Shown here: positions 4,827-17,461 of the stretch, piece after piece | Layout of the letters: the number at the start of each line of letters is the position of its first letter | How positions within the stretch are numbered: the first letter of the stretch is position 1 | Origin: Microcystis aeruginosa NIES-843 | GTDB taxonomy: Bacteria; Cyanobacteriota; Cyanobacteriia; Cyanobacteriales; Microcystaceae | Length of the DNA: 32,000 bases | NCBI RefSeq assembly: GCF_000010625.1 | Contig: NC_010296.1 | Span: 5,250,001-5,282,000, forward strand | Direction: 5' to 3' | Translations under genes and position numbers: made by a program | Notes under the pieces: model-generated | What the model saw: the letters and a program-made list of their open reading frames with translations, nothing else | What the model was told of the DNA's origin: nothing | Databases searched by the model: none

Positions 4827-5150
4827 ATGAAAAATCTACAGCTAGAGGTTATTCTGCGGGAGATAAAAGATTATTTCCATCTGCTCTATCAAAACCAATT
4901 ACAGAAAATCGTCCTTTACGGTTCCCAAGCACGGGAAGATGGACGGGAAGATTCTGATATCGATCTTTTGGTCATTCTTTCTGGTGTGGTGGATCCTTAT
5001 CAGGAAATTGACCGCACGAGTGAATTTATCGCTAGGCTTTGCCTTGATTATAATGTGGTTGTTTCCCGTCATTTTATCTCTGCGGCAAAGTTCCAGAGCG
5101 GAGATAATCCATTTCTTGACAATATACGGCGCGAAGGGGTTACGCTATGA
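4827..5150 (+). CDS. Nucleotidyltransferase-domain protein (MNT-type, antitoxin-like), no intact HEPN partner
   Basis: GSQAREDGREDSDIDLLV matches the minimal nucleotidyltransferase GS...D.D motif. Starts 3 nt after the hsdM stop. Its stop overlaps (ATGA) only a 21-codon ORF (5147-5212). Confidence 0.8.
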   Translation: MKNLQLEVILREIKDYFHLLYQNQLQKIVLYGSQAREDGREDSDIDLLVILSGVVDPYQEIDRTSEFIARLCLDYNVVVSRHFISAAKFQSGDNPFLDNIRREGVTL

Positions 5151-5177
5151 GCGATGATTGCATTGGTAGTTTTGCTC

Positions 5178-5230
5178 AACCGAAAGGATATTTGATTTAT
5201 GCTGAGAAATAAGATTTGTCGGCATTTAGA
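5178..5230 (+). repeat. Junction repeat R1 (AACCGAAAGGATATTTGATTTATG.TGA.AAATAAGATTTGTCGGCATTTAGA)
   Basis: Same unit recurs at 5373-5440, 5578-5621 (internally deleted) and 5937-6014. Its right half resembles the last ~30 nt of hsdM (4787-4815). Confidence 0.85.
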
Positions 5231-5242
5231 TTCCAAGAGAGT

Positions 5243-5269
5243 GGTGGGTTACGCTATCGCTAACCCACC
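5243..5269. repeat. Short palindromic repeat GGTGGGTTA-N9-TAACCCACC
   Basis: 9-bp perfect inverted arms. Related GGGTTA/TAACCC hairpins occur at 5301-5362, 5506-5567 and 30806-30870. Confidence 0.7.
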
Positions 5270-5282
5270 CTACCCATTGAAG

Positions 5283-5370
5283 GGAGAAGAGTTCATAGTA
5301 GGGTGGGTTAGACGGCAACAATCTAGGCGTTAAAGTCAATCTAACAATCCGTCGTAACCCACCGCTTTAG
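5283..5370. mobile_element. 88-bp MITE-like element, copy 1 (GAGAAGAGTTCATAGTAGGGTGGGTTAGACGG...CCGTCGTAACCCACCGCTTTAG)
   Basis: Identical by eye to 5488-5575. Long internal inverted repeat GGTGGGTTAGACGG / CCGTCGTAACCCACC. Confidence 0.8.
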
Positions 5371-5372
5371 TC

Positions 5373-5440
5373 CACCGAAAGGATATTTGATTTATGTTTG
5401 AAAATAAGATTTGTCGGCATTTAGAGGGGATGTGATGACT
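5373..5440 (+). repeat. Junction repeat R2, ending in GATGTGATGACT (first two codons of an MNT2-like gene, then broken by repeats)
   Basis: Matches R1 over ~53 nt. Matches the R3/MNT2 start (5591-5621) up to ATGACT, after which the similarity stops. Confidence 0.85.
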
Positions 5441-5487
5441 AGAATAGAAGCGCCATTCGATCCCCCCCAACCCCCCTTAAAAAGGGG

Positions 5488-5575
5488 GGAGAAGAGTTCA
5501 TAGTAGGGTGGGTTAGACGGCAACAATCTAGGCGTTAAAGTCAATCTAACAATCCGTCGTAACCCACCGCTTTAG
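5488..5575. mobile_element. 88-bp MITE-like element, copy 2
   Basis: Identical by eye to 5283-5370. Preceded by the hairpin CCCCCCTTAAAAAGGGGGG (5471-5489). Confidence 0.8.
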
Positions 5576-5577
5576 TT

Positions 5578-5621
5578 AACCGAAAGGATGTTTGTCGGTA
5601 TTTAGAGAGGATGTGATGACT
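5578..5621 (+). repeat. Junction repeat R3 (short form) leading into the MNT2 start codon
   Basis: AACCGAAAGGATG-TTTGTCGGTATTTAGAGAGGATGTGATGACT. Lacks the central ~26 nt of R1/R2. Confidence 0.8.
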
Positions 5622-5927
5622 GTAACGACAAAGCAACAGGTAATTAGTCTGCTAGAGCAAAATCAAGCCGAATTACGGCGATTGGGAGTTAGTCGCTGTG
5701 GTTTGTTCGGATCTTTTCGGACAGAGCAGACGACAGAGAAGAGCGATGTGGATATTTTGGTGGTGTTTCAACCCGGGATGAAGACATTTAATAATTTTAT
5801 GGATTTATGTTTCTTTTTGGAGGACTTGTTTGATCGGAGTGTGGATCTGGTTACACCTGAGTCGTTGAGTCCTTTTTTTGGACAACGAATTCTCGATGAG
5901 GTGGAATATGTCCCCTGTAGTTCGTGA
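5616..5927 (+). CDS. Nucleotidyltransferase-domain protein (second MNT-type gene, a different subfamily from 4827-5150), no HEPN/DUF86 partner
   Basis: GLFGSFRTEQTTEKSDVDILVVF plus VDLVTPESL. ATG at 5616 with GAGAGG upstream; the ORF-track start at 5592 is TTG. No partner ORF follows before hsdS. Confidence 0.8.
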   Translation: MTVTTKQQVISLLEQNQAELRRLGVSRCGLFGSFRTEQTTEKSDVDILVVFQPGMKTFNNFMDLCFFLEDLFDRSVDLVTPESLSPFFGQRILDEVEYVPCSS

Positions 5928-5936
5928 GTTTTAGTC

Positions 5937-6014
5937 AACCGAAAGGATGTTTGATTTATGTTTGAAAATAAGATTGATCTGGTTTTACGCGCGTTAAAGG
6001 AGATGTTGGGATGA
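5937..6014 (+). repeat. Junction repeat R4 plus an hsdM-3'-end-like relic that overlaps the hsdS start
   Basis: Left part matches R1/R2. The 18-codon ORF 5958-6014 (MFENKIDLVLRALKEMLG*) resembles the HsdM C-terminus (...DLDALEEMLGD*). It ends in an ATGA overlap with the hsdS ATG at 6011. Confidence 0.7.
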
Positions 6015-7198
6015 AGGATTGGCCATCTGTCGCACTAGGCGATATTTTTGAAATTGCTCGTGGTGGTTCGCCAAGACCGATTCAGAATTTTCTGACAGAA
6101 GAACCTGACGGTGTAAACTGGGTAATGATTGGTGATGCTTCGGATAGTTCAAAATACATTACACACACTAAAAAGCGCATTTTGAAGACTGGTGTTAAGA
6201 ATTCACGCATGGTCTATCCGGGTGATTTTTTACTTACGAATTCCATGAGCTTTGGCCACCCTTATATCATGAAAACATCTGGTTGTATTCATGATGGATG
6301 GCTTGTTTTAAGTAATAAAAAAGGTGTTATTGATCAAGATTATTTTTATCATCTACTAGGTTCTGATCTAATATATGCAGAGTTTTCCCGTCTTGCTTCT
6401 GGTTCAACTGTAAAGAACTTAAATATTGAGATAGTTAAAGGGATTAAGGTATCGCTCCCACCCCTCGAAGAACAGCGAAGAATTGCGGCAATTTTAGATA
6501 AAGCAGATGGGGTGCGACGCAAGCGCAAAGAGGCGATTCGGTTGACTGAGGAGTTGTTAAAATCGACTTTCCTAGAGATGTTCGGTGATCCTGTTACTAA
6601 TCCGAAAGGGTGGGAGGTGAAGCGTCTCGGTGAAATATGTACAAATTTTCAAAACGGAATAGGAAAAAATAGTGAACACTATGGTCATGGCTCTAAGGTT
6701 GCAAACATATCTGACTTGTACGAATGGCATCGTTTCATTCCAGAAAAGTATTCACTTCTCGACGTAACTCCAAAAGAGATTGAAAAATATAGTCTCATGA
6801 GAGGAGATCTGCTATTTGTACGTTCTTCAGTAAAGCGTGAAGGGGTTGCTGTATGTTCTGTTTATGATTCTGATGAGATTTGCCTTTTCAGTTCATTTAT
6901 GATCCGAGTCAGGCCGAGGACAGACCTGATTAATCCAGAGTTTTTATCTTTAATGCTTAGAACTCCACCGATGAGAAATAGACTGATTTTAGGTTCTAAC
7001 ACATCTACAATCACTAATATTTCACAGCCAGGATTATCCAAAATTGAGGTCGTTGTTCCTCCTATCAAGACACAAAATCTAATTACAAAAGTTACGAAAA
7101 ATATCGAAGAATCTGTTCGGTGTCATCTTCAGGCGCTTGAACAATCCGAAAATCTCTTTAATTCCCTTTTACAAAGAGCATTTAGGGGGGAACTGTAG
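6011..7198 (+). CDS. hsdS: Type I restriction-modification specificity subunit
   Basis: Two variable target-recognition halves separated by a conserved central helix (LPPLEEQRRIAAILDKADGVRRKRKEAIRLTEELLKSTFLEMFGDP). Conserved C-terminal helix (LFNSLLQRAFRGEL). Confidence 0.9.
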   Translation: MKDWPSVALGDIFEIARGGSPRPIQNFLTEEPDGVNWVMIGDASDSSKYITHTKKRILKTGVKNSRMVYPGDFLLTNSMSFGHPYIMKTSGCIHDGWLVLSNKKGVIDQDYFYHLLGSDLIYAEFSRLASGSTVKNLNIEIVKGIKVSLPPLEEQRRIAAILDKADGVRRKRKEAIRLTEELLKSTFLEMFGDPVTNPKGWEVKRLGEICTNFQNGIGKNSEHYGHGSKVANISDLYEWHRFIPEKYSLLDVTPKEIEKYSLMRGDLLFVRSSVKREGVAVCSVYDSDEICLFSSFMIRVRPRTDLINPEFLSLMLRTPPMRNRLILGSNTSTITNISQPGLSKIEVVVPPIKTQNLITKVTKNIEESVRCHLQALEQSENLFNSLLQRAFRGEL

Positions 7199-7418
7199 CC
7201 ATGGCAGCCGGCGGATTACTGCCATAATCTTGTGGGAAATGCCATTAAAAAAGACCGTTGGACAATTAACCAAGATTCCTATCATCTCACACTGTCACGC
7301 GGGAAAACCCTAGATAAAATAACCGAACTTGCTGTTTTTTTATATAACTGTTAAACAATAATCAGGTAAAATATAGAGATAGCCAAAACTTTGGGGATAA
7401 TAGACTGGGGAGCGCAAT

Positions 7419-10400
7419 ATGGACTCAAACTTCTCCTTCCTGCGAGATCAATTCCCGACAATCTACGATCATGCCAGCCAAGCGGAGGGATTAGTCTTCA
7501 GTAACCCCCGGGCCAGTTGCTTCTATACCCGTTTTGTCCTAGAACAAATGGTCTGCTGGCTCTATGAAAACGACCCCTACCTGCAACCGCCCCGGGACAA
7601 TAGCCTAGGCGCTCTCATCCACGAGCAAACCTTTAAAGATAACCTTAAACCTGGACTTTTCGGCAAAATTCGCACCATCCACAAAGTCGGCAACAACGCC
7701 GCCCACGATACCAGCCCCATCAGTGAACGGGACTCCCTGCACCTGATCGAGGAACTATTTCATCTCACCTACTGGCTGGTGCGCTACTATGGGCAGAATG
7801 GGCGAGAATTGGGCGATATTCGCTTCGATCGCCAGAAGATACCCCCGGCCGCACCCCCCGCTCCCAAACAACTGCAAGACCTGGAAAAACGCCTGTCCCA
7901 AAGCGATGCCCTGCGCCAATTGGCCGAAGCAAAACAGCGCCAAACCGAGGCCGAACTGGCAGCCGCTAGGGCCGAACGGGATGCCCTCCTCGCCCAAAAT
8001 CAAGCGATCGCTGACCGGCACGACTACAACGAAGCCGACACCCGCCGCTACCTGATCGATGTACTACTCCAAGAAGCCGGCTGGGATACCAAAGCCCCCA
8101 ACGCCACAGAGTTCGAGGTGTGGGGGATGCCCATCCAACAAGCGGGGGATACTGGGCGCGGTTTCGTCGATTATGTACTATGGGGCGACGACGGCAAACC
8201 CCTCGCCCTCGTGGAGGCAAAACGCAGCAGCAAAAGCCCCGACAGCGGCCAAAATCAGGCCAAACTCTACGCCGACTGCTTAGAAAAAGACTACAACCAA
8301 CGCCCCGTTATTTTCTACAGCAACGGCTATGAAACCTATCTCTGGGATGATCTCACCTATCCCCCCCGTCCCGTCCTCGGTTTCCTGCGAAAAACCGAGC
8401 TAGAACGGCTAATTTTCCGCCGTTCCCACCGTAAACGCCTCAGCAACACCGCCATTAACGAGGATATTGTCGGCCGTCCCTACCAGAAAGAGGCCATCCG
8501 CCGCATTACCGAAACCTTTGAAGAAAAGTGCGCCCGTAAGTCCCTGTTGGTTATGGCCACGGGAACCGGTAAAACCCGAACTGCGATCGCATTGGTGGAA
8601 CTGCTCAAGAGTGCCAATTGGGTAAACCGAGTCCTGTTTCTGGCCGATCGCAATGCCCTATTAAAGCAAGCCTATCGAGCCTTTCAGCGTCATCTACCCA
8701 GCGTTACCGTCCTGCATCTGACCCGCAGCAAGGACGTGACGGGGGCTAACGTCCTCTTCTCCACCTATCAAACCATGCTCAACGCCATCGATCGCATGGA
8801 TGCAGAGGGGCGAATCTTTGGGGTGGGTTATTTTGACCTAGTGATCGTCGATGAGGCCCATCGCTCCATTTATCAGAAATACGGCGAAATATTCGATTAT
8901 TTCGATGCCCTGCTGGTGGGGCTAACTGCCACGCCGCGCTCGGAAATAGACCGGGACACCTACCGCATTTTCCAGCTACCCCAGGGCGTGCCTACCTTCG
9001 CCTACGAGTTAAATGATGCCGTTAGGGATGGCCACCTCGTCCCCCCCAAGGGCGTTACTGTGCCGTTTAAGTTTCTGCGTACTGGGGTTAAATACAGTGA
9101 GCTAACCCCACAGGAGCGGCTAGACTACGAGGAGAAGTTCCGGGACGAGGAAAGCGGCGAACTACCGCAGGCAATTAACGCAGCTGCCTTTAATGACTGG
9201 TTGTTCAATATCGACACCGTGGATCAAGCATTAGAATTATTGATGCAACGGGGGCTAAAGGTCAACAGTGGCGATCGATTGGGTAAAACGATTATTTTTG
9301 CCCGTAATCACCGACACGCCCAATGTATCTGCGATCGCTTTAACAGTAACTATCCTCACTACAAAGGTCATTTCGCCAAAATTATTGACAGTCACGACAA
9401 TTACGCCCAGAGTCTGCTCGATGACTTCAGCGAAGCCAACAAAGAACCGATTTTGGCCGTCTCGGTGGATATGCTCGATACCGGCGTAGATGTGCCGGAA
9501 GTGGTCAATTTGGTGTTTTTTAAGCCCGTATTCTCCCGGGTGAAGTTCAATCAGATGATCGGGCGCGGGACCCGTCTCTGTCAGGATTTGTTTGGGACTG
9601 GCAACCATAAAACCGAGTTTCTGGTCTTTGACCTCTGCGGGAATTTCGAGTATTTCGAGCAGGATATCGATGAAACAAGCCAGAAAATACCCGAAAGCCT
9701 CACCAGTCGCCTAGTTAAACATCGCCTCGAGTTGGCAACCCGCCTCGCTCCCTCCAAGCCAAGCGCGACACCTAGGGCAAGAGAGCAGTCCTCTACTTAC
9801 AAAGTCGAGCGGGCCGGCGACCTATACACGAGTTTGCTCGATGCACTCCATCAACACATCGCCACCATGCCCCGGGATAATTTCCTCGTGCGTCGTCGCT
9901 TGCCGCAGGTGGAGACCTTTAGTCAGCGTCAGCGTTGGAACAACCTGAGTCAGGAGGACGCGGCCACCATTGCCGACTGCTTGGCCGGTTTACCCAATAG
10001 TCTGCCCAATGAGGATCCCCTGGCCAAGGAATTCGACCTTCTCTGCGTGAAACTGCAATTAGCCATTCTCAAGGCCGACCGTAGTTATGAGCGATTGCGG
10101 GACAAAGTGCGGGATATTCTCGGTCAACTGGAGACTAAGCCCGATATCCCGATGATTAAGGGACAATTGGCCTTTATTCGCGAGGTGCAGGACGAAAGCT
10201 GGTGGACCGGCGCAACGCCGTCAATGGTGGAGGGGATTCGGGTGCGTGTCCGGGATCTGGTCAAGTTTATTGATCGCCAAAAGCAGCAGATCGTGATCAC
10301 CGATTTTGTCGATGAGATGGGGGAGGTGCAGATTGTCGATATTCCCACCCATCAGACCGGTTTTAGTCGCGAACAGTATCGCCGGAAAGTGGAGGCCTAT

Positions 10401-10865
10401 ATCCGTCAGCATCAGGATCACCTTGCGATCGCTAAGTTGCGGCGCAATCTCCCCCTAACGGAGACGGATTTATCTGCCCTAGAGGAGATGCTATTTTCGG
10501 CCGCAGAAATTGAGAGCCGTCAGCGTTTTGAGGAGGTTTTTGGCCAGACAAAAAGCCTCAAGCTCCTGATCCTGGAAATCGTCGGACTTGATCCCGCAGG
10601 GATCCGCGTAGCGGCACGCCAGGCGGCTAAACAAGCTTTTGCCCGTTATTTGCAGGGGACAAACTTCTCGGCCAATCAAATCCGTTTTATCGAAAATATC
10701 ATCGATATGCTCGCTAAAAACGGAGTTATCAATCCGGGGGCGCTCTACGAGCCTCCTTTTACTGATAACCATCCCGAAGGGCTAGATGGGATGTTTAATG
10801 ATGGGGAAGCTGATCGGATCGTCTCGATTTTGCGATCGTTTAATGAGTCCGTTGATGCGGTCTAA
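7419..10865 (+). CDS. hsdR: Type I restriction enzyme R subunit with an N-terminal DUF4145-like domain and a coiled-coil extension
   Basis: PD-(D/E)XK nuclease motif (GFVDYVLW...LVEAKRS). Helicase motifs I MATGTGKT, II VIVDEAHRS, III GLTATP. EcoEI-R-like C-terminal region. 1148 aa. Confidence 0.95.
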   Translation: MDSNFSFLRDQFPTIYDHASQAEGLVFSNPRASCFYTRFVLEQMVCWLYENDPYLQPPRDNSLGALIHEQTFKDNLKPGLFGKIRTIHKVGNNAAHDTSPISERDSLHLIEELFHLTYWLVRYYGQNGRELGDIRFDRQKIPPAAPPAPKQLQDLEKRLSQSDALRQLAEAKQRQTEAELAAARAERDALLAQNQAIADRHDYNEADTRRYLIDVLLQEAGWDTKAPNATEFEVWGMPIQQAGDTGRGFVDYVLWGDDGKPLALVEAKRSSKSPDSGQNQAKLYADCLEKDYNQRPVIFYSNGYETYLWDDLTYPPRPVLGFLRKTELERLIFRRSHRKRLSNTAINEDIVGRPYQKEAIRRITETFEEKCARKSLLVMATGTGKTRTAIALVELLKSANWVNRVLFLADRNALLKQAYRAFQRHLPSVTVLHLTRSKDVTGANVLFSTYQTMLNAIDRMDAEGRIFGVGYFDLVIVDEAHRSIYQKYGEIFDYFDALLVGLTATPRSEIDRDTYRIFQLPQGVPTFAYELNDAVRDGHLVPPKGVTVPFKFLRTGVKYSELTPQERLDYEEKFRDEESGELPQAINAAAFNDWLFNIDTVDQALELLMQRGLKVNSGDRLGKTIIFARNHRHAQCICDRFNSNYPHYKGHFAKIIDSHDNYAQSLLDDFSEANKEPILAVSVDMLDTGVDVPEVVNLVFFKPVFSRVKFNQMIGRGTRLCQDLFGTGNHKTEFLVFDLCGNFEYFEQDIDETSQKIPESLTSRLVKHRLELATRLAPSKPSATPRAREQSSTYKVERAGDLYTSLLDALHQHIATMPRDNFLVRRRLPQVETFSQRQRWNNLSQEDAATIADCLAGLPNSLPNEDPLAKEFDLLCVKLQLAILKADRSYERLRDKVRDILGQLETKPDIPMIKGQLAFIREVQDESWWTGATPSMVEGIRVRVRDLVKFIDRQKQQIVITDFVDEMGEVQIVDIPTHQTGFSREQYRRKVEAYIRQHQDHLAIAKLRRNLPLTETDLSALEEMLFSAAEIESRQRFEEVFGQTKSLKLLILEIVGLDPAGIRVAARQAAKQAFARYLQGTNFSANQIRFIENIIDMLAKNGVINPGALYEPPFTDNHPEGLDGMFNDGEADRIVSILRSFNESVDAV

Positions 10866-10890
10866 GAGTAAGCGCGGATGAAGAAATAAA
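10839..10890 (+). repeat. 52-bp direct repeat, copy A (covers the last 8 codons and stop of hsdR plus 25 nt)
   Basis: TTTAATGAGTCCGTTGATGCGGTCTAAGAGTAAGCGCGGATGAAGAAATAAA. Matches 16680-16731 at 50 of 52 positions. Confidence 0.95.
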
Positions 10891-10893
10891 AGC

Positions 10894-11772
10894 ATGAAAA
10901 CTGACACGATTTTTTATCAACTCTTTCAATCATTCCCCTCTATCTTCTTTGAATTAATTCAACTCCCTATCAGCGAAGCGAATAACTACCGCTTTGACTC
11001 AGTGGAAGTCAAACAACTTTCCTTTCGTCTTGATGGAGTCTTTCTGCCTCAAAATAATCACCCCCAGACTCCTATCTACTTCTGTGAGGTACAATTTCAA
11101 GAAGATGAGGCTTTTTATCAGCGCTTTTTCACCGAAATATTCTTATATCTCAGTAAAACTGACTTAACCAATGATTGGCGGGGTGTGATTGTCTATCCTA
11201 ACCCTCAAGTAGAAACCGATAAAGTTCAACGCTATCGGGAACTTCTCAACTCCGAGCGAGTGAGACGGATTTATCTGAATGAATTAGAAAACATTCCTCA
11301 AACTTCGATTGGTTTAGCTACAGTCCAATTAATCACCCTATCTAAAGCAAAAGCGATTGATAGCACCCGAAAATTAATCCAAAGAGTGCGGCAAGAATTA
11401 ACCCCCGACCAAAAACCGCAAGAACTCTTACAATTAATAGAGACGATTCTCGTTTATAAGTTACCGCTTCTCAATCGTCGGGAGATAGAAACTATGTTTA
11501 GTTTAGATGAATTAAAACAGACTCAGTATTTTCAAGATGTGCGCGAAGAAGCGCGTCAGGAAGGTCGTCAGGAAGGCATTGAGCAAGGCATTGAGCAAGG
11601 CATTGAGCAAGGCATTGAGCAAGGCATTGAGCAAGGTATTGAGCAAGGCAGACTAAACAAAGCACTAGAGGCGGTCCCTCGTTTGTTAGCCTTAGGGTTA
11701 AGTGTTGAGCAAGTCGCATCCGCGTTAGAGTTAGAGGTTGAACAGGTTAGAGCTATACAAAACGGGACATAA
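10894..11772 (+). CDS. Rpn (YhgA-like)/DUF2887-type PD-(D/E)XK recombination-promoting nuclease/putative transposase family protein, tandem copy 1 (292 aa, 6 GIEQ repeats)
   Basis: N-terminus MKTDTIFYQLFQ, a putative nuclease core (RLDGVF...IYFCEVQFQ) and a C-terminal helix-rich tail after a QEGR/GIEQ linker. Family assignment is by pattern recognition only. Starts 28 nt after the hsdR stop. Confidence 0.75.
   Translation: MKTDTIFYQLFQSFPSIFFELIQLPISEANNYRFDSVEVKQLSFRLDGVFLPQNNHPQTPIYFCEVQFQEDEAFYQRFFTEIFLYLSKTDLTNDWRGVIVYPNPQVETDKVQRYRELLNSERVRRIYLNELENIPQTSIGLATVQLITLSKAKAIDSTRKLIQRVRQELTPDQKPQELLQLIETILVYKLPLLNRREIETMFSLDELKQTQYFQDVREEARQEGRQEGIEQGIEQGIEQGIEQGIEQGIEQGRLNKALEAVPRLLALGLSVEQVASALELEVEQVRAIQNGT
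11575..11646 (+). repeat. In-frame 12-bp tandem repeat GGCATTGAGCAA x6 (encodes GIEQ)
   Basis: Six contiguous units; the last one reads GGTATTGAGCAA. Confidence 0.95.
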
Positions 11773-11835
11773 AAAAATGTGATCGCCTTGTGAAATAAAA
11801 GCATGAAAACTGACACGATTTTTTATCAACTCTTT

Positions 11836-13053
11836 AGACCTCTTGCATAATTTTTTTATGGTATAATATAAGGTTTTGCTTTTTTCTCAATTCTTAGATT
11901 GAAGTGGAAAAAAGAATAAAATGTGATCTTAGGTCAGGAAATCATCTATAATTTTGCTATGTTTATTAGCAAAATTATGGATTATCAAAACTTATCAGAT
12001 GAACAATTCAAACGCCGTTTCGGTGTGTATAAACAAACCTATAGAAAGATGGTAGAATCAGTAAAAAGTGTTGAAGCCGACTCTAATTCACCATCTAAAA
12101 GGGGACCGAAACCTAAACTATCTATAGAAGAACAAGTTTTAGTAACGTTAGAATATTGGCGAGAATATAGAACATATTTTCACATTGGTACAAGCTGGGA
12201 ACTATCAGAATCAACTATATGTCGGATTGTAAATAAGACGGAAAAAATGCTTTTACAATCGGGAAACTTCCGTTTAAAAGGAAAAAAAGCTTTACTCAAT
12301 CAAGCAGAGATACCGGTCATAACGGTAATGGATGTAACGGAAACTCCCATTGAACGCCCCCAAAAGAAACAGAAAGATTTTTTTTCGGGTAAAAGAGGTT
12401 ATCATACTTTAAAATCCCAATTAGTAGCTGATCAAAATACAAAGGAAATTATCTGTGTCTTTTGTGGGAAAGGTAGAGGTCATGATTTTAGTTTATTTAA
12501 AAAAAGTCGAGTTCGTTTTCATCCTTTAACTACCAGCATAGAAGACAGTGGTTATCAGGGAATAGCTGCATACCATAGTAATAGTTATACACCGAAAAAG
12601 AAATCGAAAAATAGAAAATTAACAGAGTTAGAAAAAGAGTATAACAAGGCTTTAGCCAAAGAAAGGATTATCATTGAACATATAAATAGGAAACTCAAAA
12701 TCTTTAAAATCTTATCCTGTAAATATCGGAATCGTCGTCGAAGATATAGTTTAAGAGTTAACTTGTTGGCGGCTATTTATAACTGTGAGTTAGGGATAGG
12801 TATAGCAGCTTCTTAAAAGTTGCCTAAAGATTAATCAAGTCAAGGAGAATTTATTCTCAATTTTTATAATTGAGATAGTTTGTGCCGCTTAAATAAAGAG
12901 GTTTTGATAACCAAATTAAAGCAGCTCTAAAGAGTTTTGAGTTAAAAGTTAAACTTCAAGTTTTCATTCAGGACAAATGTACTGATTAACTAATTTTTTG
13001 GGGAAAATTAGTTAACCCATCATTATAACATATAATTAATTTGCAAGAGTTCT
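11836..13053 (+). mobile_element. Insertion sequence (~1218 bp), IS5/Harbinger-like DDE family
   Basis: Imperfect terminal inverted repeats AGACCTCTTGCATAAT... / ...ATTTGCAAGAGTTCT. Flanked by duplicated TTT (11833-11835 and 13054-13056). Single transposase ORF. AT-rich. Confidence 0.85.
11977..12816 (+). CDS. IS5/Harbinger-like DDE transposase (HTH plus DDE_Tnp_4-like domain)
   Basis: Candidate DDE residues in MDVTETPIERP, IEDSGYQGI and RIIIEHINRKLKIFKIL. N-terminal HTH region (RGPKPKLSIEEQVLVTLEYWREYRTY). ATG at 11977 is preferred over the GTG at 11923. Confidence 0.85.
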   Translation: MDYQNLSDEQFKRRFGVYKQTYRKMVESVKSVEADSNSPSKRGPKPKLSIEEQVLVTLEYWREYRTYFHIGTSWELSESTICRIVNKTEKMLLQSGNFRLKGKKALLNQAEIPVITVMDVTETPIERPQKKQKDFFSGKRGYHTLKSQLVADQNTKEIICVFCGKGRGHDFSLFKKSRVRFHPLTTSIEDSGYQGIAAYHSNSYTPKKKSKNRKLTELEKEYNKALAKERIIIEHINRKLKIFKILSCKYRNRRRRYSLRVNLLAAIYNCELGIGIAAS

Positions 13054-13848
13054 TTTCAATCTTTCCCCTCTATCTTCTTTGAATTAATTCAACTCCCTAT
13101 CAGCGAAGCGAATAACTACCGCTTTGACTCAGTGGAAGTCAAACAACTTTCCTTTCGTCTTGATGGAGTCTTTCTGCCTCAAAATAATCACCCCCAGACT
13201 CCTATCTACTTCTGTGAGGTACAATTTCAAGAAGATGAGGCTTTTTATCAGCGCTTTTTCACCGAAATATTCTTATATCTCAGTAAAACTGACTTAACCA
13301 ATGATTGGCGGGGTGTGATTGTCTATCCTAACCCTCAAGTAGAAACCGATAAAGTTCAACGCTATCGGGAACTTCTCAACTCCGAGCGAGTGAGACGGAT
13401 TTATCTGAATGAATTAGAAAACATTCCTCAAACTTCGATTGGTTTAGCTACAGTCCAATTAATCACCCTATCTAAAGCAAAAGCGATTGATAGCACCCGA
13501 AAATTAATCCAAAGAGTGCGGCAAGAATTAACCCCCGACCAAAAACCGCAAGAACTCTTACAATTAATAGAGACGATTCTCGTTTATAAGTTACCGCTTC
13601 TCAATCGTCGGGAGATAGAAACTATGTTTAGTTTAGATGAATTAAAACAGACTCAGTATTTTCAAGATGTGTGCGAAGAAGCGCGTCAGGAAGGCAGACT
13701 AAACAAAGCACTAGAGGCGGTCCCTCGTTTGTTAGCCTTAGGGTTAAGTGTTGAGCAAGTCGCATCCGCGTTAGAGTTAGAGGTTGAACAGGTTAGAGCT
13801 ATACAAAACGGGACATAAAAAAATGCGATCGCCTTGTGAAATAAAAGC

Positions 13849-14667
13849 ATGAAAACTGACACGATTTTTTATCAACTCTTTCAATCTTTCCCCTCTATCT
13901 TCTTTGAATTAATTCAACTCCCTATCAGCGAAGCGAATAACTACCGCTTTGACTCAGTGGAAGTCAAACAACTTTCCTTTCGTCTTGATGGAGTCTTTCT
14001 GCCTCAAAATAATCACCCCCAGACTCCTATCTACTTCTGTGAGGTACAATTTCAAGAAGATGAGGCTTTTTATCAGCGCTTTTTCACCGAAATATTCTTA
14101 TATCTCAGTAAAACTGACTTAACCAATGATTGGCGGGGTGTGATTGTCTATCCTAACCCTCAAGTAGAAACCGATAAAGTTCAACGCTATCGGGAACTTC
14201 TCAACTCCGAGCGAGTGAGACGGATTTATCTGAATGAATTAGAAAACATTCCTCAAACTTCGATTGGTTTAGCTACAGTCCAATTAATCACCCTATCTAA
14301 AGCAAAAGCGATTGATAGCACCCGAAAATTAATCCAAAGAGTGCGGCAAGAATTAACCCCCGACCAAAAACCGCAAGAACTCTTACAATTAATAGAGACG
14401 ATTCTCGTTTATAAGTTACCGCTTCTCAATCGTCGGGAGATAGAAACTATGTTTAGTTTAGATGAATTAAAACAAACTCAGTATTTTCAAGATGTGCGCG
14501 AGGAAGCGCGTCAGGAAGGTCGCGAGGAAGGTCGTCAGGAAGGCAGACTAAACAAAGCACTAGAGGCTGTCCCTCGTTTGTTAGCCTTAGGGTTAAGTGT
14601 TGAGCAAGTCGCATCCGCGTTAGAGTTAGAGGTTGAACAGGTTAGAGCTATACAAAACGGGACATAA
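13849..14667 (+). CDS. Rpn/DUF2887-type nuclease, tandem copy 3 (272 aa, 0 GIEQ, one extra EGRE/EGRQ unit)
   Basis: Near-identical to copy 1 outside the linker, which reads QEGREEGRQEGRLNK. Confidence 0.75.
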   Translation: MKTDTIFYQLFQSFPSIFFELIQLPISEANNYRFDSVEVKQLSFRLDGVFLPQNNHPQTPIYFCEVQFQEDEAFYQRFFTEIFLYLSKTDLTNDWRGVIVYPNPQVETDKVQRYRELLNSERVRRIYLNELENIPQTSIGLATVQLITLSKAKAIDSTRKLIQRVRQELTPDQKPQELLQLIETILVYKLPLLNRREIETMFSLDELKQTQYFQDVREEARQEGREEGRQEGRLNKALEAVPRLLALGLSVEQVASALELEVEQVRAIQNGT

Positions 14668-14697
14668 AAAAATGCGATCGCCTTGTGAAATAAAAGC

Positions 14698-15564
14698 ATG
14701 AAAACTGACACGATTTTTTATCAACTCTTTCAATCTTTCCCCTCTATCTTCTTTGAATTAATTCAACTCCCTATCAGCGAAGCGAATAACTACCGCTTTG
14801 ACTCAGTGGAAGTCAAACAACTTTCCTTTCGTCTTGATGGAGTCTTTCTGCCTCAAAATAATCACCCCCAGACTCCTATCTACTTCTGTGAGGTACAATT
14901 TCAAGAAGATGAGGCTTTTTATCAGCGCTTTTTCACCGAAATATTCTTATATCTCAGTAAAACTGACTTAACCAATGATTGGCGGGGTGTGATTGTCTAT
15001 CCTAACCCTCAAGTAGAAACCGATAAAGTTCAACGCTATCGGGAACTTCTCAACTCCGAGCGAGTGAGACGGATTTATCTGAATGAATTAGAAAACATTC
15101 CTCAAACTTCGATTGGTTTAGCTACAGTCCAATTAATCACCCTATCTAAAGCAAAAGCGATTGATAGCACCCGAAAATTAATCCAAAGAGTGCGGCAAGA
15201 ATTAACCCCCGACCAAAAACCGCAAGAACTCTTACAATTAATAGAGACGATTCTCGTTTATAAGTTACCGCTTCTCAATCGTCGGGAGATAGAAACTATG
15301 TTTAGTTTAGATGAATTAAAACAAACTCAGTATTTTCAAGATGTGCGCGAAGAAGCGCGTCAGGAAGGTCGCGAGGAAGGCATTGAGCAAGGCATTGAGC
15401 AAGGCATTGAGCAAGGCATTGAGCAAGGTATTGAGCAAGGCAGACTAAACAAAGCATTAGAGGCGGTCCCTCGTTTGTTAGCCTTAGGGTTAAGTGTTGA
15501 GCAAGTCGCATCCGCGTTAGAGTTAGAGGTTAAACAGGTTAGAGCTATACAAAACGGGACATAA
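14698..15564 (+). CDS. Rpn/DUF2887-type nuclease, tandem copy 4 (288 aa, 5 GIEQ)
   Basis: Near-identical to copy 1. The 30-nt spacer upstream contains a HIP1 site (GCGATCGC). Confidence 0.75.
   Translation: MKTDTIFYQLFQSFPSIFFELIQLPISEANNYRFDSVEVKQLSFRLDGVFLPQNNHPQTPIYFCEVQFQEDEAFYQRFFTEIFLYLSKTDLTNDWRGVIVYPNPQVETDKVQRYRELLNSERVRRIYLNELENIPQTSIGLATVQLITLSKAKAIDSTRKLIQRVRQELTPDQKPQELLQLIETILVYKLPLLNRREIETMFSLDELKQTQYFQDVREEARQEGREEGIEQGIEQGIEQGIEQGIEQGRLNKALEAVPRLLALGLSVEQVASALELEVKQVRAIQNGT
15379..15438 (+). repeat. In-frame 12-bp tandem repeat GGCATTGAGCAA x5
   Basis: Five contiguous units inside copy 4. Confidence 0.95.
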
Positions 15565-15594
15565 AAAAATGTGATCGCCTTGTAAAATAAAAGC

Positions 15595-16437
15595 ATGAAA
15601 ACTGACACGATTTTTTATCAACTCTTTCAATCATTCCCCTCTATCTTCTTTGAATTAATTCAACTCCCTATCAGCGAAGCGAATAACTACCGCTTTGACT
15701 CAGTGGAAGTCAAACAACTTTCTTTTCGTCTTGATGGAGTCTTTCTGCCTCAAAATAATCACCCCCAGACTCCTATCTACTTCTGTGAGGTACAATTTCA
15801 AGAAGATGAGGCTTTTTATCAGCGCTTTTTCACTGAAATATTCTTATATCTCAGTAAAACTGACTTAACCAATGATTGGCGGGGTGTGATTGTCTATCCT
15901 AACCCTCAAGTAGAAACCGATAAAGTTCAACGCTATCGGGAACTTCTCAACTCCGAGCGAGTGAGACGGATTTATCTGAATGAATTAGAAAACATTCCTC
16001 AAACTTCGATTGGTTTAGCTACAGTCCAATTAATCACCCTATCTAAAGCAAAAGCGATTGATAGCACCCGAAAATTAATCCAAAGAGTGCGGCAAGAATT
16101 AACCCCCGACCAAAAACCGCAAGAACTCTTACAATTAATAGAGACGATTCTCGTTTATAAGTTACCGCTTCTCAATCGTCGGGAGATAGAAACTATGTTT
16201 AGTTTAGATGAATTAAAACAAACTCAGTATTTTCAAGATGTGCGCGAAGAAGCGCGTCAGGAAGGTCGCGAGGAAGGCATTGAGCAAGGCATTGAGCAAG
16301 GCATTGAGCAAGGCAGACTAAACAAAGCACTAGAGGCTGTCCCTCGTTTGTTAGCCTTAGGGTTAAGCGTTGAGCAAGTCGCATCTGCGTTAGAGTTAGA
16401 GGTTAAACAGGTTAGAGCTATACAAAACGGGACATAA
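15595..16437 (+). CDS. Rpn/DUF2887-type nuclease, tandem copy 5 (280 aa, 3 GIEQ)
   Basis: Near-identical to copy 1. Last unit of the array, followed by a ~240-nt unique tail. Confidence 0.75.
   Translation: MKTDTIFYQLFQSFPSIFFELIQLPISEANNYRFDSVEVKQLSFRLDGVFLPQNNHPQTPIYFCEVQFQEDEAFYQRFFTEIFLYLSKTDLTNDWRGVIVYPNPQVETDKVQRYRELLNSERVRRIYLNELENIPQTSIGLATVQLITLSKAKAIDSTRKLIQRVRQELTPDQKPQELLQLIETILVYKLPLLNRREIETMFSLDELKQTQYFQDVREEARQEGREEGIEQGIEQGIEQGRLNKALEAVPRLLALGLSVEQVASALELEVKQVRAIQNGT
16276..16311 (+). repeat. In-frame 12-bp tandem repeat GGCATTGAGCAA x3
   Basis: Three contiguous units inside copy 5. Confidence 0.95.
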
Positions 16438-16679
16438 TCTCCTTATGTCCTCATGTCTAGGATGTCCTGTTATACTAAATCCTGTTTGATTTGATTGATT
16501 CAAGCTAATGTTATGGCTAATACTGGGAAAAGTTAAGATTTATACCCCATAGATGAGCGATTAAAAGCAATAATCTCCGCCATTCTACCCCCCCGAATTT
16601 GTCAAGTATTCTCCGTTTTTTATTGATGAATACGGAAAAAGCCCATCAGGGAGAGACTGGAAGGGTTAGAAAGTTGAGA

Positions 16680-16731
16680 TTTAACGAGTCCGTTGATGCG
16701 GTCTAAGAGCAAGCGCGGATGAAGAAATAAA
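16680..16731 (+). repeat. 52-bp direct repeat, copy B (relic of the hsdR 3' end; overlaps the real 3' end of tauE on the minus strand)
   Basis: TTTAACGAGTCCGTTGATGCGGTCTAAGAGCAAGCGCGGATGAAGAAATAAA. It still reads FNESVDAV* in the hsdR sense. The tauE stop (CTA, 16703-16705) lies inside it. Confidence 0.95.
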
Positions 16732-17461
16732 TGGCCATCAGTAGCAGAAAAATATAAAAAGTAATCCGCACCAATCGATCCGGTAATTTCGGTAAAAAAC
16801 GAGTGGTTACTTGTACACCTAGGGAACCACCGATACCTAAAATAATCCCTTGTAGATAAAGAATATGACCGGCTTGGGCATGAGCGAAACAGGCGGCGAT
16901 CGAATTGAGTAAAACCACACCTAAACTGGTGACAATGGCGATTTTGATCTTTTCTGCCAAAAAAATCATTTGTAGTGGCACCATGATCGCCCCACCGCCA
17001 ATTCCGAAAATACCGGCTAGAAATCCAGCGATTCCTCCGGTTAGCAGACAGGCTAGATTAGGATGCAATCTAATGGCAGAAACTGACTCTTTTTGGCTTA
17101 AATTTTGCTTGAGATTGGTTAAATAGATATTGAGCAGTAAAAAACAACCAAAAGCCGCTTCTAGGAGGTGTTTGGGGCTATATTTGACCAGATAGACCCC
17201 GATAAATGCCGTAAAAATCCCGGGTAAACCTAAGAGGAGAACTCGCTGCCATTTCAGGGAACCTAATCGCCAATTTTGGATCGTACCCCCTAGGGAAGTG
17301 AAAACGATCGCTAAACTGCTGGTAGCCACCGATTCCCCGTAACTGTAGCCCAAATTTAACAGGATCGCCACGGAGATAGTGCCACCCCCAATACCGAATA
17401 AACCCGCTAATAAGCCCGAAAAAACGCCTGTTATCAGTAAAATCAAGTAATTGTCTGCCAT
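16703..17461 (-). CDS. TauE/SafE family sulfite-exporter-like membrane protein
   Basis: 252 aa, multi-TM, with duplicated GLFGIGGG / GIFGIGGGAIMVP motifs typical of the family. Confidence 0.85.
   Translation of the reverse strand: MADNYLILLITGVFSGLLAGLFGIGGGTISVAILLNLGYSYGESVATSSLAIVFTSLGGTIQNWRLGSLKWQRVLLLGLPGIFTAFIGVYLVKYSPKHLLEAAFGCFLLLNIYLTNLKQNLSQKESVSAIRLHPNLACLLTGGIAGFLAGIFGIGGGAIMVPLQMIFLAEKIKIAIVTSLGVVLLNSIAACFAHAQAGHILYLQGIILGIGGSLGVQVTTRFLPKLPDRLVRITFYIFLLLMAIYFFIRACS

Follow-up and report, generated by a model that had tools for sequence, protein, structure and literature searches.

A type I defence module with an rpn array

The window, the whole 32,000-nucleotide stretch of Microcystis aeruginosa NIES-843 DNA that was analysed, contains an array of rpn genes directly downstream of a type I hsdMSR restriction-modification system, which is a defence-island location, followed by a tauE/safE-family gene (Table 1). 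In all strains with this exact HsdM, efp lies directly upstream of hsdM. Nucleotidyltransferase-like ORFs sit between hsdM and hsdS, and the G+C content of hsdR is 53–59% versus about 40% in the flanks. In other strains (designated here by L numbers), Fic and other rpn paralogues occur at the same site, which is a variable defence-island hotspot in Microcystis.

Table 1. Features from hsdM to tauE, with positions in the window
Feature	Position	Strand	Evidence or remark
hsdM, type I restriction-modification methylase	3336–4823	+	NCBIfam hsdM/MAD2 matches; left end of defence module
hsdS, specificity subunit	6011–7198	+	Pfam Methylase_S
hsdR, 1148 aa, EcoAI/EcoEI type	7419–10865	+	Pfam ResIII, EcoEI_R_C, HSDR_N
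Copy A of 52-bp repeat	10839–10890		Real hsdR end (FNESVDAV*) and opposite-strand relic of tauE end
Left junction microhomology (A)GAAATAAA	10882–10890		Common to tauE 3' end and native rpn upstream sequence
rpn unit 1, 292 aa, DUF2887/TIGR01784	10894–11772	+	Most four-residue repeats of the five
rpn unit 2, interrupted	11803–13818	+	5' part 11803–11835, 3' part 13054–13818; sequence reading and repeat families
IS5-family insertion sequence	11836–13053	+	NCBIfam transpos_IS5_4 4e-60, Pfam DDE_Tnp_4; transposase ORF 11923–12816
rpn unit 3, 272 aa	13849–14667	+	Pfam match
rpn unit 4, 288 aa	14698–15564	+	Pfam match
rpn unit 5, 280 aa	15595–16437	+	Unit retained beside tauE in most strains
Native rpn 3' flank, 8-bp hairpin 16430–16450	16438–16489	+	Same flank behind rpn units in L015, L023
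S, remnant of PEP-CTERM gene promoter and 5' region	16490–16667	-	Homology to other strains
Right junction sequence AGAAAGTTGAGA	16668–16679		Alternative allele in other strains: AGAA only
Copy B of 52-bp repeat	16680–16731		Real tauE end (YFFIRACS*) and relic of hsdR end
tauE/safE-family membrane protein gene	16703–17461	-	Pfam TauE 1e-47; stop CTA 16703–16705

The block enclosed by the two repeats comprises five DUF2887/rpn units, one of which is split by an IS5-family element, and a 178-bp remnant of a PEP-CTERM promoter. Every intact unit matches TIGR01784 (1e-44) and PF11103 (DUF2887, 4e-84) and thus carries the N-terminal PD-(D/E)XK Rpn nuclease domain. The number of GIEQ/QEGR four-residue units, 0–7 and encoded by 12-nt repeats, is all that distinguishes the five copies; the tract of these units begins about 21–25 residues after the internal methionine M201 (MFSLDELKQT...), the published range being 8–20 residues. 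Stand-alone rpn fragments that start just upstream of the MFSLDELK methionine are present in L015, L023 and L058 and may hint at the small C-terminal protein that, in RpnL/RpnS systems, is translated on its own and neutralises the long form. Since the units are near-identical and separated by a constant 30-nt spacer, and since strains have between 1 and 5 of them, the array was built by tandem amplification. The amplified copies are best read as RpnL/RpnS-type toxin–antitoxin genes, set apart from one another by nothing but their four-residue repeat counts. According to the initial annotation, a single sequence precedes every rpn start and the block is an Rpn array throughout; the former holds for four of the five starts, which are preceded by GAAATAAAAGC, while the fifth (15595) has AAAATAAAAGC, and the latter has to be revised to five rpn units, the IS5-family element and a last 242 bp that are not Rpn.

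Imperfect terminal inverted repeats (AGACCTCTTGC... at one end, ...GCAAGAGTTCT at the other) bound the IS5-family element, which is accompanied by a 3-bp duplication (TTT) and interrupts unit 2, so that this unit begins at 11803 and continues from 13054. A 98.6% identical copy of this element is located elsewhere in L022. The last 242 bp of the block (16438–16679) consist of the rpn 3' flank, the PEP-CTERM promoter remnant S and 12 nt of junction sequence. S is 82–84% identical to the region directly upstream of a PEP-CTERM gene in L007 (4021–4204), L015 (10782–10971) and L021. The PEP-CTERM gene itself has been deleted in the present strain; in L015, L021 and L040 it is complete, with rpn on one side and copy B on the other. 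Owing to this homology and to the full gene inside the block in these three strains, the block is to be regarded as ordinary chromosome of mixed content and not as a discrete element.

The direct repeats and their junctions

Copies A and B are direct repeats, identical at 50 of 52 positions, with a spacing of 5841 bp and 5789 bp between them. A search for the 52-mer with up to three mismatches returned no further site in the window, and 100 shuffles gave no match at all. One intact gene end is kept by each copy, so that the direct repeats regenerate the 3' ends of the target genes. As for the two differences, copy A has TAC (Tyr) at the position of the tauE TGC (Cys), and copy B has AAC where hsdR reads AAT, both encoding Asn. 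The relic CTA of copy A occupies 10862–10864 and the hsdR stop TAA 10863–10865.

HsdR homologues from other genera share a conserved ...RSFNE[ST]VD... motif that matches the FNESVDA part of the 52-mer, and the left half of the repeat is therefore true hsdR sequence. Most of these proteins extend about 6–9 residues beyond this point, whereas the Microcystis HsdR ends in ...SVDAV* and so lacks roughly the last 6–9 codons (C-termini of 120 homologues). The right half originates from tauE, as is evident from the tauE ORF itself and from L020-type strains, in which the relic is absent and only 4 nt beyond the tauE stop are common with other strains. Given the hsdR origin of the left half, it is soundly inferred that hsdR and tauE once met tail to tail and that this junction was duplicated in the repeats. 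The initial annotation had described the repeats and their 50/52 match, assigned one real gene end and one relic to each copy, and proposed an ancestral convergent junction of the two genes; the coordinates are correct, the assignment was confirmed, and the proposal is supported by the HsdR motif and by the L020-type strains.

At the left junction, the partners match over 8–9 nt, (A)GAAATAAA, and the microhomology that had been suspected there is real, with an 8-nt overlap. GAAATAAA also begins the rpn-specific homology in three other contexts, namely the inter-unit spacer, the X flank of L040 and the U flank of L007. In L040, an unrelated flank (gttcaGAAATAAAAGC) precedes rpn at the same boundary. 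Overall, rpn-specific homology starts at one position, RAAATAARAGC-ATG, in four different left contexts, and the ends of these four flanks upstream of rpn coincide to within about 2 nt. A second type of left junction, A2, switches at AGCGCG and repeats 38 nt. The right junction has a weak match of at most 4 nt and 4–12 nt of extra sequence. Each junction exists in two alleles across the strains, which diverge precisely at the junction and not at random positions. With the left junction falling within GAAATAAA and the A2 switch at AGCGCG after 38 nt, the junctions look like products of illegitimate recombination.

The comparison between strains reveals extensive variation around these junctions. 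Copy A is structured as in the window in L001, L002, L018 and L022–L024, and the hsdR relic of copy B is present in about 31 of the approximately 34 Microcystis tauE ends examined. L022–L024 have hsdR, copy A and rpn without tauE; conversely, L007, L031 and L040 have rpn and copy B without hsdR or copy A. The order in L040 is X, rpn, PEP-CTERM, S', copy B and tauE, i.e., the rpn/PEP-CTERM segment still adjoins tauE there but has another left flank. An rpn remnant whose protein is only 48% identical lies beside tauE in L020, and L037 has an Rpn-like C-terminal fragment there, judged by eye from motifs and not by profile. Some polymorphisms (GGTYTAA, CAG vs GAG) are common to copies A and B across strains. 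Different species-level Microcystis lineages (L018 and that of the window) each have the copy A/copy B pair, and the insertion event is therefore old.

Origin of the repeats

No terminal inverted repeats pair the two block ends, and Pfam and NCBIfam scans of the window ORFs (27 of the 28 with 120 aa or more, among them all between hsdM and tauE) detected no recombinase, integrase or excisionase, only the IS5 DDE transposase. None of about 34 tauE ends or 14 hsdR ends showed an empty site, and the predicted empty site, used as a gapped pattern, had 0 matches in metagenome contigs. The close rpn homologues that were traced (three look-ups) are all located at the present locus, and no donor copy of the rpn/PEP-CTERM segment was identified at an unlinked locus. 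Furthermore, flanking repeats exceed 14 nt at none of four other cyanobacterial DUF2887 loci, and copies at multiple loci with a duplication of constant length were not found, the repeat here being 52 or 38 nt depending on the strain. The initial annotation had interpreted the 52 bp as a target duplication revealing how rpn genes move, and had proposed to search for empty sites in relatives and for long repeats at other Rpn/DUF2887 loci. This interpretation is not supported, as the block is mixed, inverted repeats and a recombinase are lacking and a 38-nt variant exists. The outcomes that it had listed as contrary, i.e., no empty sites together with unrelated flanks and other Rpn loci devoid of long repeats, are largely those observed, considering the missing empty site, the strain-variable flanks and the four loci without long repeats.

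A true target-site duplication, in which an Rpn-dependent staggered cut of about 52 nt would be followed by insertion of an rpn cassette and fill-in, is distinctly improbable. It would account for the precise flanking of the block by direct repeats, the identical start of rpn homology in four left contexts and the gathering of distinct rpn paralogues beside tauE (the L020 remnant and the L037 fragment), and Kingston et al. raise autonomous or homing-like movement as a possibility (PMC5350276). However, the block includes a PEP-CTERM promoter remnant or, in other strains, the whole gene, the left junction displays a microhomology that is needless for a staggered cut, and the alternative junction repeats 38 nt only. 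The lack of terminal inverted repeats and of an empty site, the single locus of the traced homologues and the four DUF2887 loci without long repeats argue in the same direction. In addition, published comparative work reports no target-site duplications around rpn genes, attributing their arrays to tandem duplication, and no autonomous PD-(D/E)XK transposases (PMC10400941).

A two-step rearrangement in cis is also unlikely, if somewhat less so. The rpn/PEP-CTERM segment would initially have preceded the restriction-modification genes; duplicated in tandem, the stretch from the rpn leader to the tauE tail would have yielded copy A, with its junction at AGAAATAAA, and deletion of the second restriction-modification copy save its last 27 nt would have left copy B. 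Tandem duplication is clearly active at the locus, the copy A junction is exactly what microhomology-mediated tandem duplication would give, and the L040 order is the expected product if two segment copies later recombined. Nevertheless, this course requires at least two events and the later loss of the upstream copy; strains with this HsdM all have efp immediately before hsdM, and no trace of S or rpn was found upstream of hsdM. Highly improbable is the integration of a circular molecule via the 52-bp sequence, either by an integrase (attL/attR) or by a Campbell-type crossover, with the block carrying the junction copy. Islands that integrate into the 3' ends of genes restore the gene end and are then flanked by direct repeats of tens of bp, a size that would fit here, the minimum length for RecA-mediated recombination is near 52 bp, and the polymorphisms common to copies A and B could reflect exchange. 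These polymorphisms are few, however, and could be due to chance, integrase and excisionase are absent in or near the block, and no empty attB-like site was found. Moreover, a circle with the 52-mer presupposes an existing duplication, and would thus explain the spread of the repeats but not their origin.

With modest confidence, we favour the explanation that the repeats are an old segmental duplication of the point where a 3'-truncated type I hsdR met tauE, generated by one RecA-independent, microhomology-mediated insertion. A chromosomal segment carrying an rpn toxin–antitoxin gene and a neighbouring PEP-CTERM gene with its promoter would have been joined at this point in a one-off illegitimate event, with the left joint placed in the (A)GAAATAAA match of the tauE tail to the rpn leader. 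The simplest mechanism would be a replicative template switch or a staggered break that was filled in: synthesis may have been primed on the rpn leader by a 3' end in the tauE tail, run through the segment and come back 44–52 nt upstream, which would duplicate the junction and leave both ORF ends intact. Subsequently, rpn would have been amplified in place by tandem duplication with the 30-nt spacer between units, the PEP-CTERM ORF lost by deletion and unit 2 hit by the IS5-family element, and homologous recombination among the rpn copies would have reshuffled copy number and outer flanks between strains. We infer the sequence of events, the mechanism of template switching and whatever part the Rpn nuclease may have had in the break and, since no empty site was found, also the direction and single-step nature of the insertion. 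Published work is consistent with this explanation: Rpn proteins have been proposed to supply substrates for the microhomology-mediated assembly of islands (PMC5350276), and rpn arrays are traced to tandem duplication, with no target-site duplications (PMC10400941). The missing donor at another locus and the weak microhomology of the right junction count against it.

Two further points weigh against the favoured explanation: as the alleles of both junctions differ exactly there, recurrent events or repeated remodelling may have taken place at the site, and the four left flanks ending at one position could mean that rpn has a defined mobile boundary. These two features would also be expected if the enzyme repeatedly breaks and rejoins DNA at the border of its own gene. 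The 52-bp and 38-bp repeats would then record an Rpn-nuclease-promoted insertion, in which a nick in the tauE tail primes via GAAATAAA and returns about 50 nt upstream. We consider this quite unlikely, less so than a target-site duplication and more so than the rearrangement in cis; if true, rpn genes would spread in a homing-like, microhomology-guided manner that leaves long duplications of variable length.

Comparison with known systems

Genes of the rpn family are labelled putative transposases, and published surveys report neither inverted repeats nor target duplications for them. The present locus is a rare case of an rpn-containing insertion whose two junctions are both legible at single-nucleotide resolution, and these point to microhomology-mediated joining rather than transposition, in agreement with the biochemical primer-template switching proposal. 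It also offers a clean natural rpn array whose copies differ only in the four-residue repeat number, which in E. coli sets the specificity of toxin–antitoxin pairing. For now, this single old event at a single locus makes a useful anecdote and a lead that can be tested, not a new mechanism.

The array resembles the intragenic RpnL/RpnS toxin–antitoxin systems, which act against phages (Zhong et al. 2023, PMC10400941), in its N-terminal PD-(D/E)XK Rpn domain (here TIGR01784, DUF2887), its internal methionine (here M201) followed by a four-residue repeat tract, its tandem-duplication array and its position beside a type I restriction-modification system. The present genes, however, belong to a cyanobacterial DUF2887 branch known here from sequence and form one array of five near-identical copies with 0 to 7 repeats, and the block is flanked by a 52-bp duplication, whereas target-site duplications are not reported in that paper. 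The junction microhomology also fits the template switching proposed for RpnA-stimulated RecA-independent recombination, where Rpn cleavage products would prime the joining (Kingston et al. 2017, PMC5350276). That study differs in that it concerned E. coli PF04754 YhgA-like proteins and measured conjugational recombination, not rpn gene insertion.

As in transposase target-site duplications, direct repeats of the target lie immediately on either side of the inserted block. Such duplications are usually 2–14 bp compared to 52 bp (or 38 bp) here; terminal inverted repeats and defined ends are missing, one locus is involved and the junction has microhomology, and the Rpn enzyme fold is not known for autonomous transposition. 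The regenerated target gene ends and direct repeats of tens of bp recall genomic islands at the 3' ends of genes (attL/attR), from which the locus differs in having no integrase, a very small block and no empty attB in relatives. Finally, MMBIR/FoSTeS-type template switching and RecA-independent bacterial duplications differ in that the event here is old, so that intermediates are lost, and in that no donor template was identified; they share with it a one-off nature, a junction microhomology of 4–9 nt, short extra junction sequence and the duplication of a few tens of bp at the return point.

The duplicated gene ends

The two 52-bp sequences that flank the rpn block, copy A and copy B, lie where the initial annotation had placed them, match at 50 of 52 positions, and show the spacing and the stop-codon overlap that it had described. 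They are the only two sites in the window that match the 52-mer with at most 3 mismatches, and no such match occurred in 100 dinucleotide-preserving shuffles. Copy A contains the end of the hsdR ORF, while copy B contains the end of the tauE ORF. The copies differ by a synonymous change in the hsdR half (AAT/AAC) and by TAC/TGC in the tauE half, where the relic has Tyr for Cys. Gene conversion between the copies was considered, and the shared polymorphic sites, 2 in all, were too few to call it.

A homologue search with the last 259 HsdR residues revealed that the motif ...RSFNE[ST]VD... is conserved in the best 120 homologues, which come from many cyanobacterial genera and metagenomes, and this identifies the left half of the 52-mer as genuine hsdR sequence. 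Most of these homologues extend about 6-9 residues past the motif and Microcystis HsdR ends in ...RSFNESVDAV*, so the gene has lost a few terminal codons at its meeting point with tauE. At three loci of other Microcystis strains (L020, L032 and L034, the L020 type) the tauE end is the same and divergence begins 4 nt past the tauE stop, which marks the position of the old fusion. That hsdR and tauE once met tail to tail with overlapping stops can be soundly inferred from the sequences, and the structural part of the earlier reading, the duplication of this junction, stands.

Several other features of the restriction-modification genes were observed. The G+C content of hsdR (7400-10400) is 53-59%, as opposed to ~39-44% in hsdS and the surrounding genome, and hsdR may have an origin different from its M and S partners. 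Two nucleotidyltransferase-like (NTP_transf_2/Polbeta) ORFs (4827-5150 and 5592-5927) lie between hsdM and hsdS, together with a repeated unit of ~205 bp (repeats at ~5176-5594 and 5930-5986) that is present in about six tandem copies in another strain (L023, 1539-2745). In addition, a 744-aa ORF with N6/N4 DNA methylase and HSDR_N-like nuclease domains (28081-30315) represents a second restriction-modification-type gene ~11 kb from the array.

Positions of the genes, repeats and block components in the window
Feature	Position	Length	Source or remark
hsdM	3336-4823		Pfam/NCBIfam
hsdS	6011-7198		Pfam/NCBIfam
hsdR, EcoAI/EcoEI type	7419-10865		Pfam/NCBIfam
Copy A	10839-10890	52 bp	
DUF2887/TIGR01784 Rpn genes	starts 10894, 13849, 14698, 15595		Pfam/NCBIfam
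IS5-family element	11836-13053	1218 bp	imperfect terminal inverted repeats, TTT 3-bp duplication
IS5-family transposase	11923-12816		Pfam/NCBIfam
Rpn ORF, 5'-truncated	13132		Pfam/NCBIfam
Repeat-bearing 3' regions of rpn	11494-11772, 13624-13818, 14449-14667, 15298-15564, 16195-16437		
Native rpn 3' flank with hairpin		52 nt	directly past last rpn unit
S	16490-16667	178 nt	followed by 12 nt, then copy B
Copy B	16680-16731	52 bp	
tauE	16703-17461		minus strand

Content and junctions of the block

The block holds five rpn units separated by a spacer that is constant at 30 nt, as read from the junctions in the sequence. Unit 2 starts at 11803 and is interrupted after 33 nt by the IS5-family element, which appears to have been active recently because another strain (L022) holds a 98.6% identical copy at another place as well as a partial copy. 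One of the L022 copies truncates hsdR. The proteins of all five units are identical apart from the count of a four-residue repeat (GIEQ/QEGR, 0 to 7 units), and this tract starts ~21-25 residues past an internal methionine, M201 (MFSLDELKQT...). In other strains, a sequence 82-84% identical to the segment S immediately precedes a gene for a PEP-CTERM protein, and at three loci (L015, L021 and L040) the entire PEP-CTERM gene separates copy B from the rpn genes. What lies in the block is therefore ordinary chromosomal DNA that includes rpn, and not a discrete rpn element.

Two alleles were found at each junction, and all four combinations of them are seen across strains. At the left junction, 52 nt are repeated in allele A1, which ends in ...GATGAAGAAATAAA-AGC-ATG, whereas in allele A2 the 38 repeated nucleotides are followed by TA[C/G]TGCTATAAAATAA[A/G]AGC-ATG, the same sequence as at the end of a 149-nt flank (U) found in two other strains. 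The right junction reads ...GGGTTAGAAAGTTGAGA-TTTAAC... in B1 and ...GGGTTAGAA-ATTAAC... in B2. The tauE-derived half ends with GAAATAAA, and the rpn-specific leader starts with the same letters, which indicates that the left junction is a microhomology crossover and that the target was truly duplicated over 44-52 nt. With the preceding A, GAAATAAA forms a 9-nt match with the L040 flank; the same left boundary recurs in the inter-unit spacers (ccttgtGAAATAAAAGC) and in L040 (gttcaGAAATAAAAGC), and it is shifted by one base in U (ctatAAAATAAGAGC). The A2 junction lies at another short match, AGCGCG. At the right junction no more than TTAA is shared, and 4-12 nt of junction sequence are present. 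No terminal inverted repeats were found at the block ends, and no integrase was found in the window by Pfam/NCBIfam. In L058 (6080-6110) the A2-type junction is a perfect 16-nt palindrome (TAGTACGCGCGTACTA) directly past the hsdR stop, and the L003 version has 14 nt and one mismatch.

The tauE site in other strains

Complete genomes, species representatives and metagenome contigs supplied the ~34 tauE ends and 14 hsdR ends of the survey, and empty sites were looked up with the exact TauE, HsdR, HsdM and neighbouring lipid kinase proteins, in species-representative genomes and at all 13 metagenome tauE ends. The empty site that the initial annotation had predicted, with hsdR directly against tauE, was seen at none of these ends, and a gapped pattern written to span the junction of such a site had 0 matches in the metagenome collection. 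One locus that gene calls suggested to be empty (L010) carries the usual relic and S. Apart from the three L020-type loci, every tauE end is accompanied by the hsdR relic, and each of the 14 hsdR ends is followed by copy A-type sequence and then by rpn. Strains have 1 to 5 rpn copies between the repeats, and their outer flanks also vary. L007 and L031 have, without hsdR, the order tauE, copy B, S, rpn, U, a second copy of S and the PEP-CTERM gene; L040 has an unrelated gene, rpn, PEP-CTERM, S, copy B and tauE; and in L022-L024, which are without tauE, the hsdR, copy A and rpn units adjoin DUF3067 and efp, a gene that in the window is found upstream of hsdM. Since the copy A/copy B pair is present in separate species-level lineages (L018 and the window), the event must be old. 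In strain QQWB01 (L052, 4934-5288), the hsdR 3' end is broken ~50 nt before copy A by an insertion of ~355 bp that resembles a MITE, a short non-coding mobile element.

The flank U (L007 3872-4020) starts with ATTAATCAGT next to the S counterpart, resembling the left end of copy B, and its end next to rpn reads AGCGCGTAGTGC..., AGCGCGTAGTGCTATAAAATAAGAGC, of which AGCGCGTAGTGCTATAAAATAAGAGC is identical to the A2 junction. If copies A and B underwent unequal crossover, U could be the resulting hybrid 52-mer, now decayed and carrying a small palindromic insert; the ends fit, and the alignment tests were not significant (local p = 0.15, anchored p = 0.014). Strain CP086723 (L002, 13768-14315) has a third, decayed hsdR end with copy A inside the array, whose stretches of 10-30 nt alternate with parts of the rpn 3' region in a frameshift-rich assembly. 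Either repeated template switching or an error in the assembly consensus would account for this mosaic, which was left out of the evidence.

All close Rpn homologues that were traced (at least 94% identity) are at this one locus, and the next relatives are single Crocosphaera genes, 68-72% identical, in unrelated housekeeping contexts. A flank comparison of the window, L018 and four single-copy DUF2887 genes (two Crocosphaera loci, Gloeothece PCC 7424 and Aphanothece) retrieved the 52-nt repeat of the window (E = 2e-21) and a 45-nt repeat in L018; around the four single-copy genes no repeat longer than 14 nt was found. Different rpn paralogues are present at the same site beside tauE in other strains, and the 3' flank of tauE appears to be a hotspot where rpn and defence genes collect. 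In L020 (9483-9980), a paralogue with a 48% identical protein lies beside tauE and adjoins a Fic gene, and in L037 (8549-9154 in window orientation, with the stored locus reverse-complemented) a C-terminal fragment that has QEGR repeats was recognised by eye as Rpn-like. That rpn was the original neighbour of tauE was rejected, since the L020 remnant is a different paralogue and the closest orthologues, those of Crocosphaera, are in unrelated contexts.

Origin of the duplication and related systems

Of the accounts considered, the best supported has one illegitimate event, long ago, where hsdR and tauE met within a defence-island hotspot. A segment with rpn and PEP-CTERM genes would have joined in via microhomology, with ~50 bp duplicated and both genes keeping their ends. 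Later, rpn would have been amplified in tandem, the PEP-CTERM ORF lost, the IS5 element inserted and the arrangement reshuffled through recombination. A replicative template switch would account in one step for the microhomology, the junction sequence and the duplication, and staggered-break fill-in would explain them equally well. RpnA is a nuclease whose products are able to prime joining via primer-template switching, and a role in microhomology-mediated island assembly has been proposed for it (Kingston et al. 2017, PMC5350276); that an Rpn nuclease made the initiating nick here is a conjecture.

The repeats had also been read as a possible footprint of Rpn movement. Such a dedicated mechanism of mobility, in which a long stretch of target is duplicated, is not supported by the block content, the junctions or the other rpn loci. 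A site-directed, Rpn-linked process retains a small probability, given that strains vary exactly at each junction, that four unrelated left flanks end at one place, and that other rpn paralogues accumulated next to tauE. However, the ordinary chromosomal content marked by S, the microhomology at the left junction, the lack of terminal inverted repeats and integrase, and the flanks of the four other DUF2887 loci all argue against Rpn mobility, as does a published survey in which rpn genes are without inverted repeats or target-site duplications, regions that contain rpn have variable ends, and arrays arise from tandem duplication (Zhong et al. 2023, PMC10400941). It is possible that the rpn block and the restriction-modification genes were tandemly duplicated and then partly deleted, but no trace of S or rpn was found upstream of hsdM. 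Integration of a circle through the 52-mer remains as a further alternative to the single illegitimate event, although it would explain spread and not origin, and no recombinase is present.

In terms of known systems, and judged on the defining features that were examined, the flanking repeat is neither a transposon target-site duplication nor an att duplication, and its behaviour is that of a scar left by microhomology-mediated rearrangement. The window genes are Rpn family members, and in sequence they share with the RpnL/RpnS toxin-antitoxin systems the domain, the internal methionine, the variable four-residue repeat tract and the location in a defence island. Stand-alone rpn 3' fragments that start just upstream of the MFSLDELK start occur in other strains (L015 11656-11874 and 11935-12165; L058 7868-8086; L023 9764-9960); each would be an orphan copy of what is putatively the antitoxin part, and their repeated retention suggests selection. 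In E. coli, the number of four-residue repeats decides which of the long Rpn forms a given short form neutralises, and for this reason the array may encode five non-interchangeable putative toxin-antitoxin pairs. The locus is a new and well-resolved example of things of known kinds.
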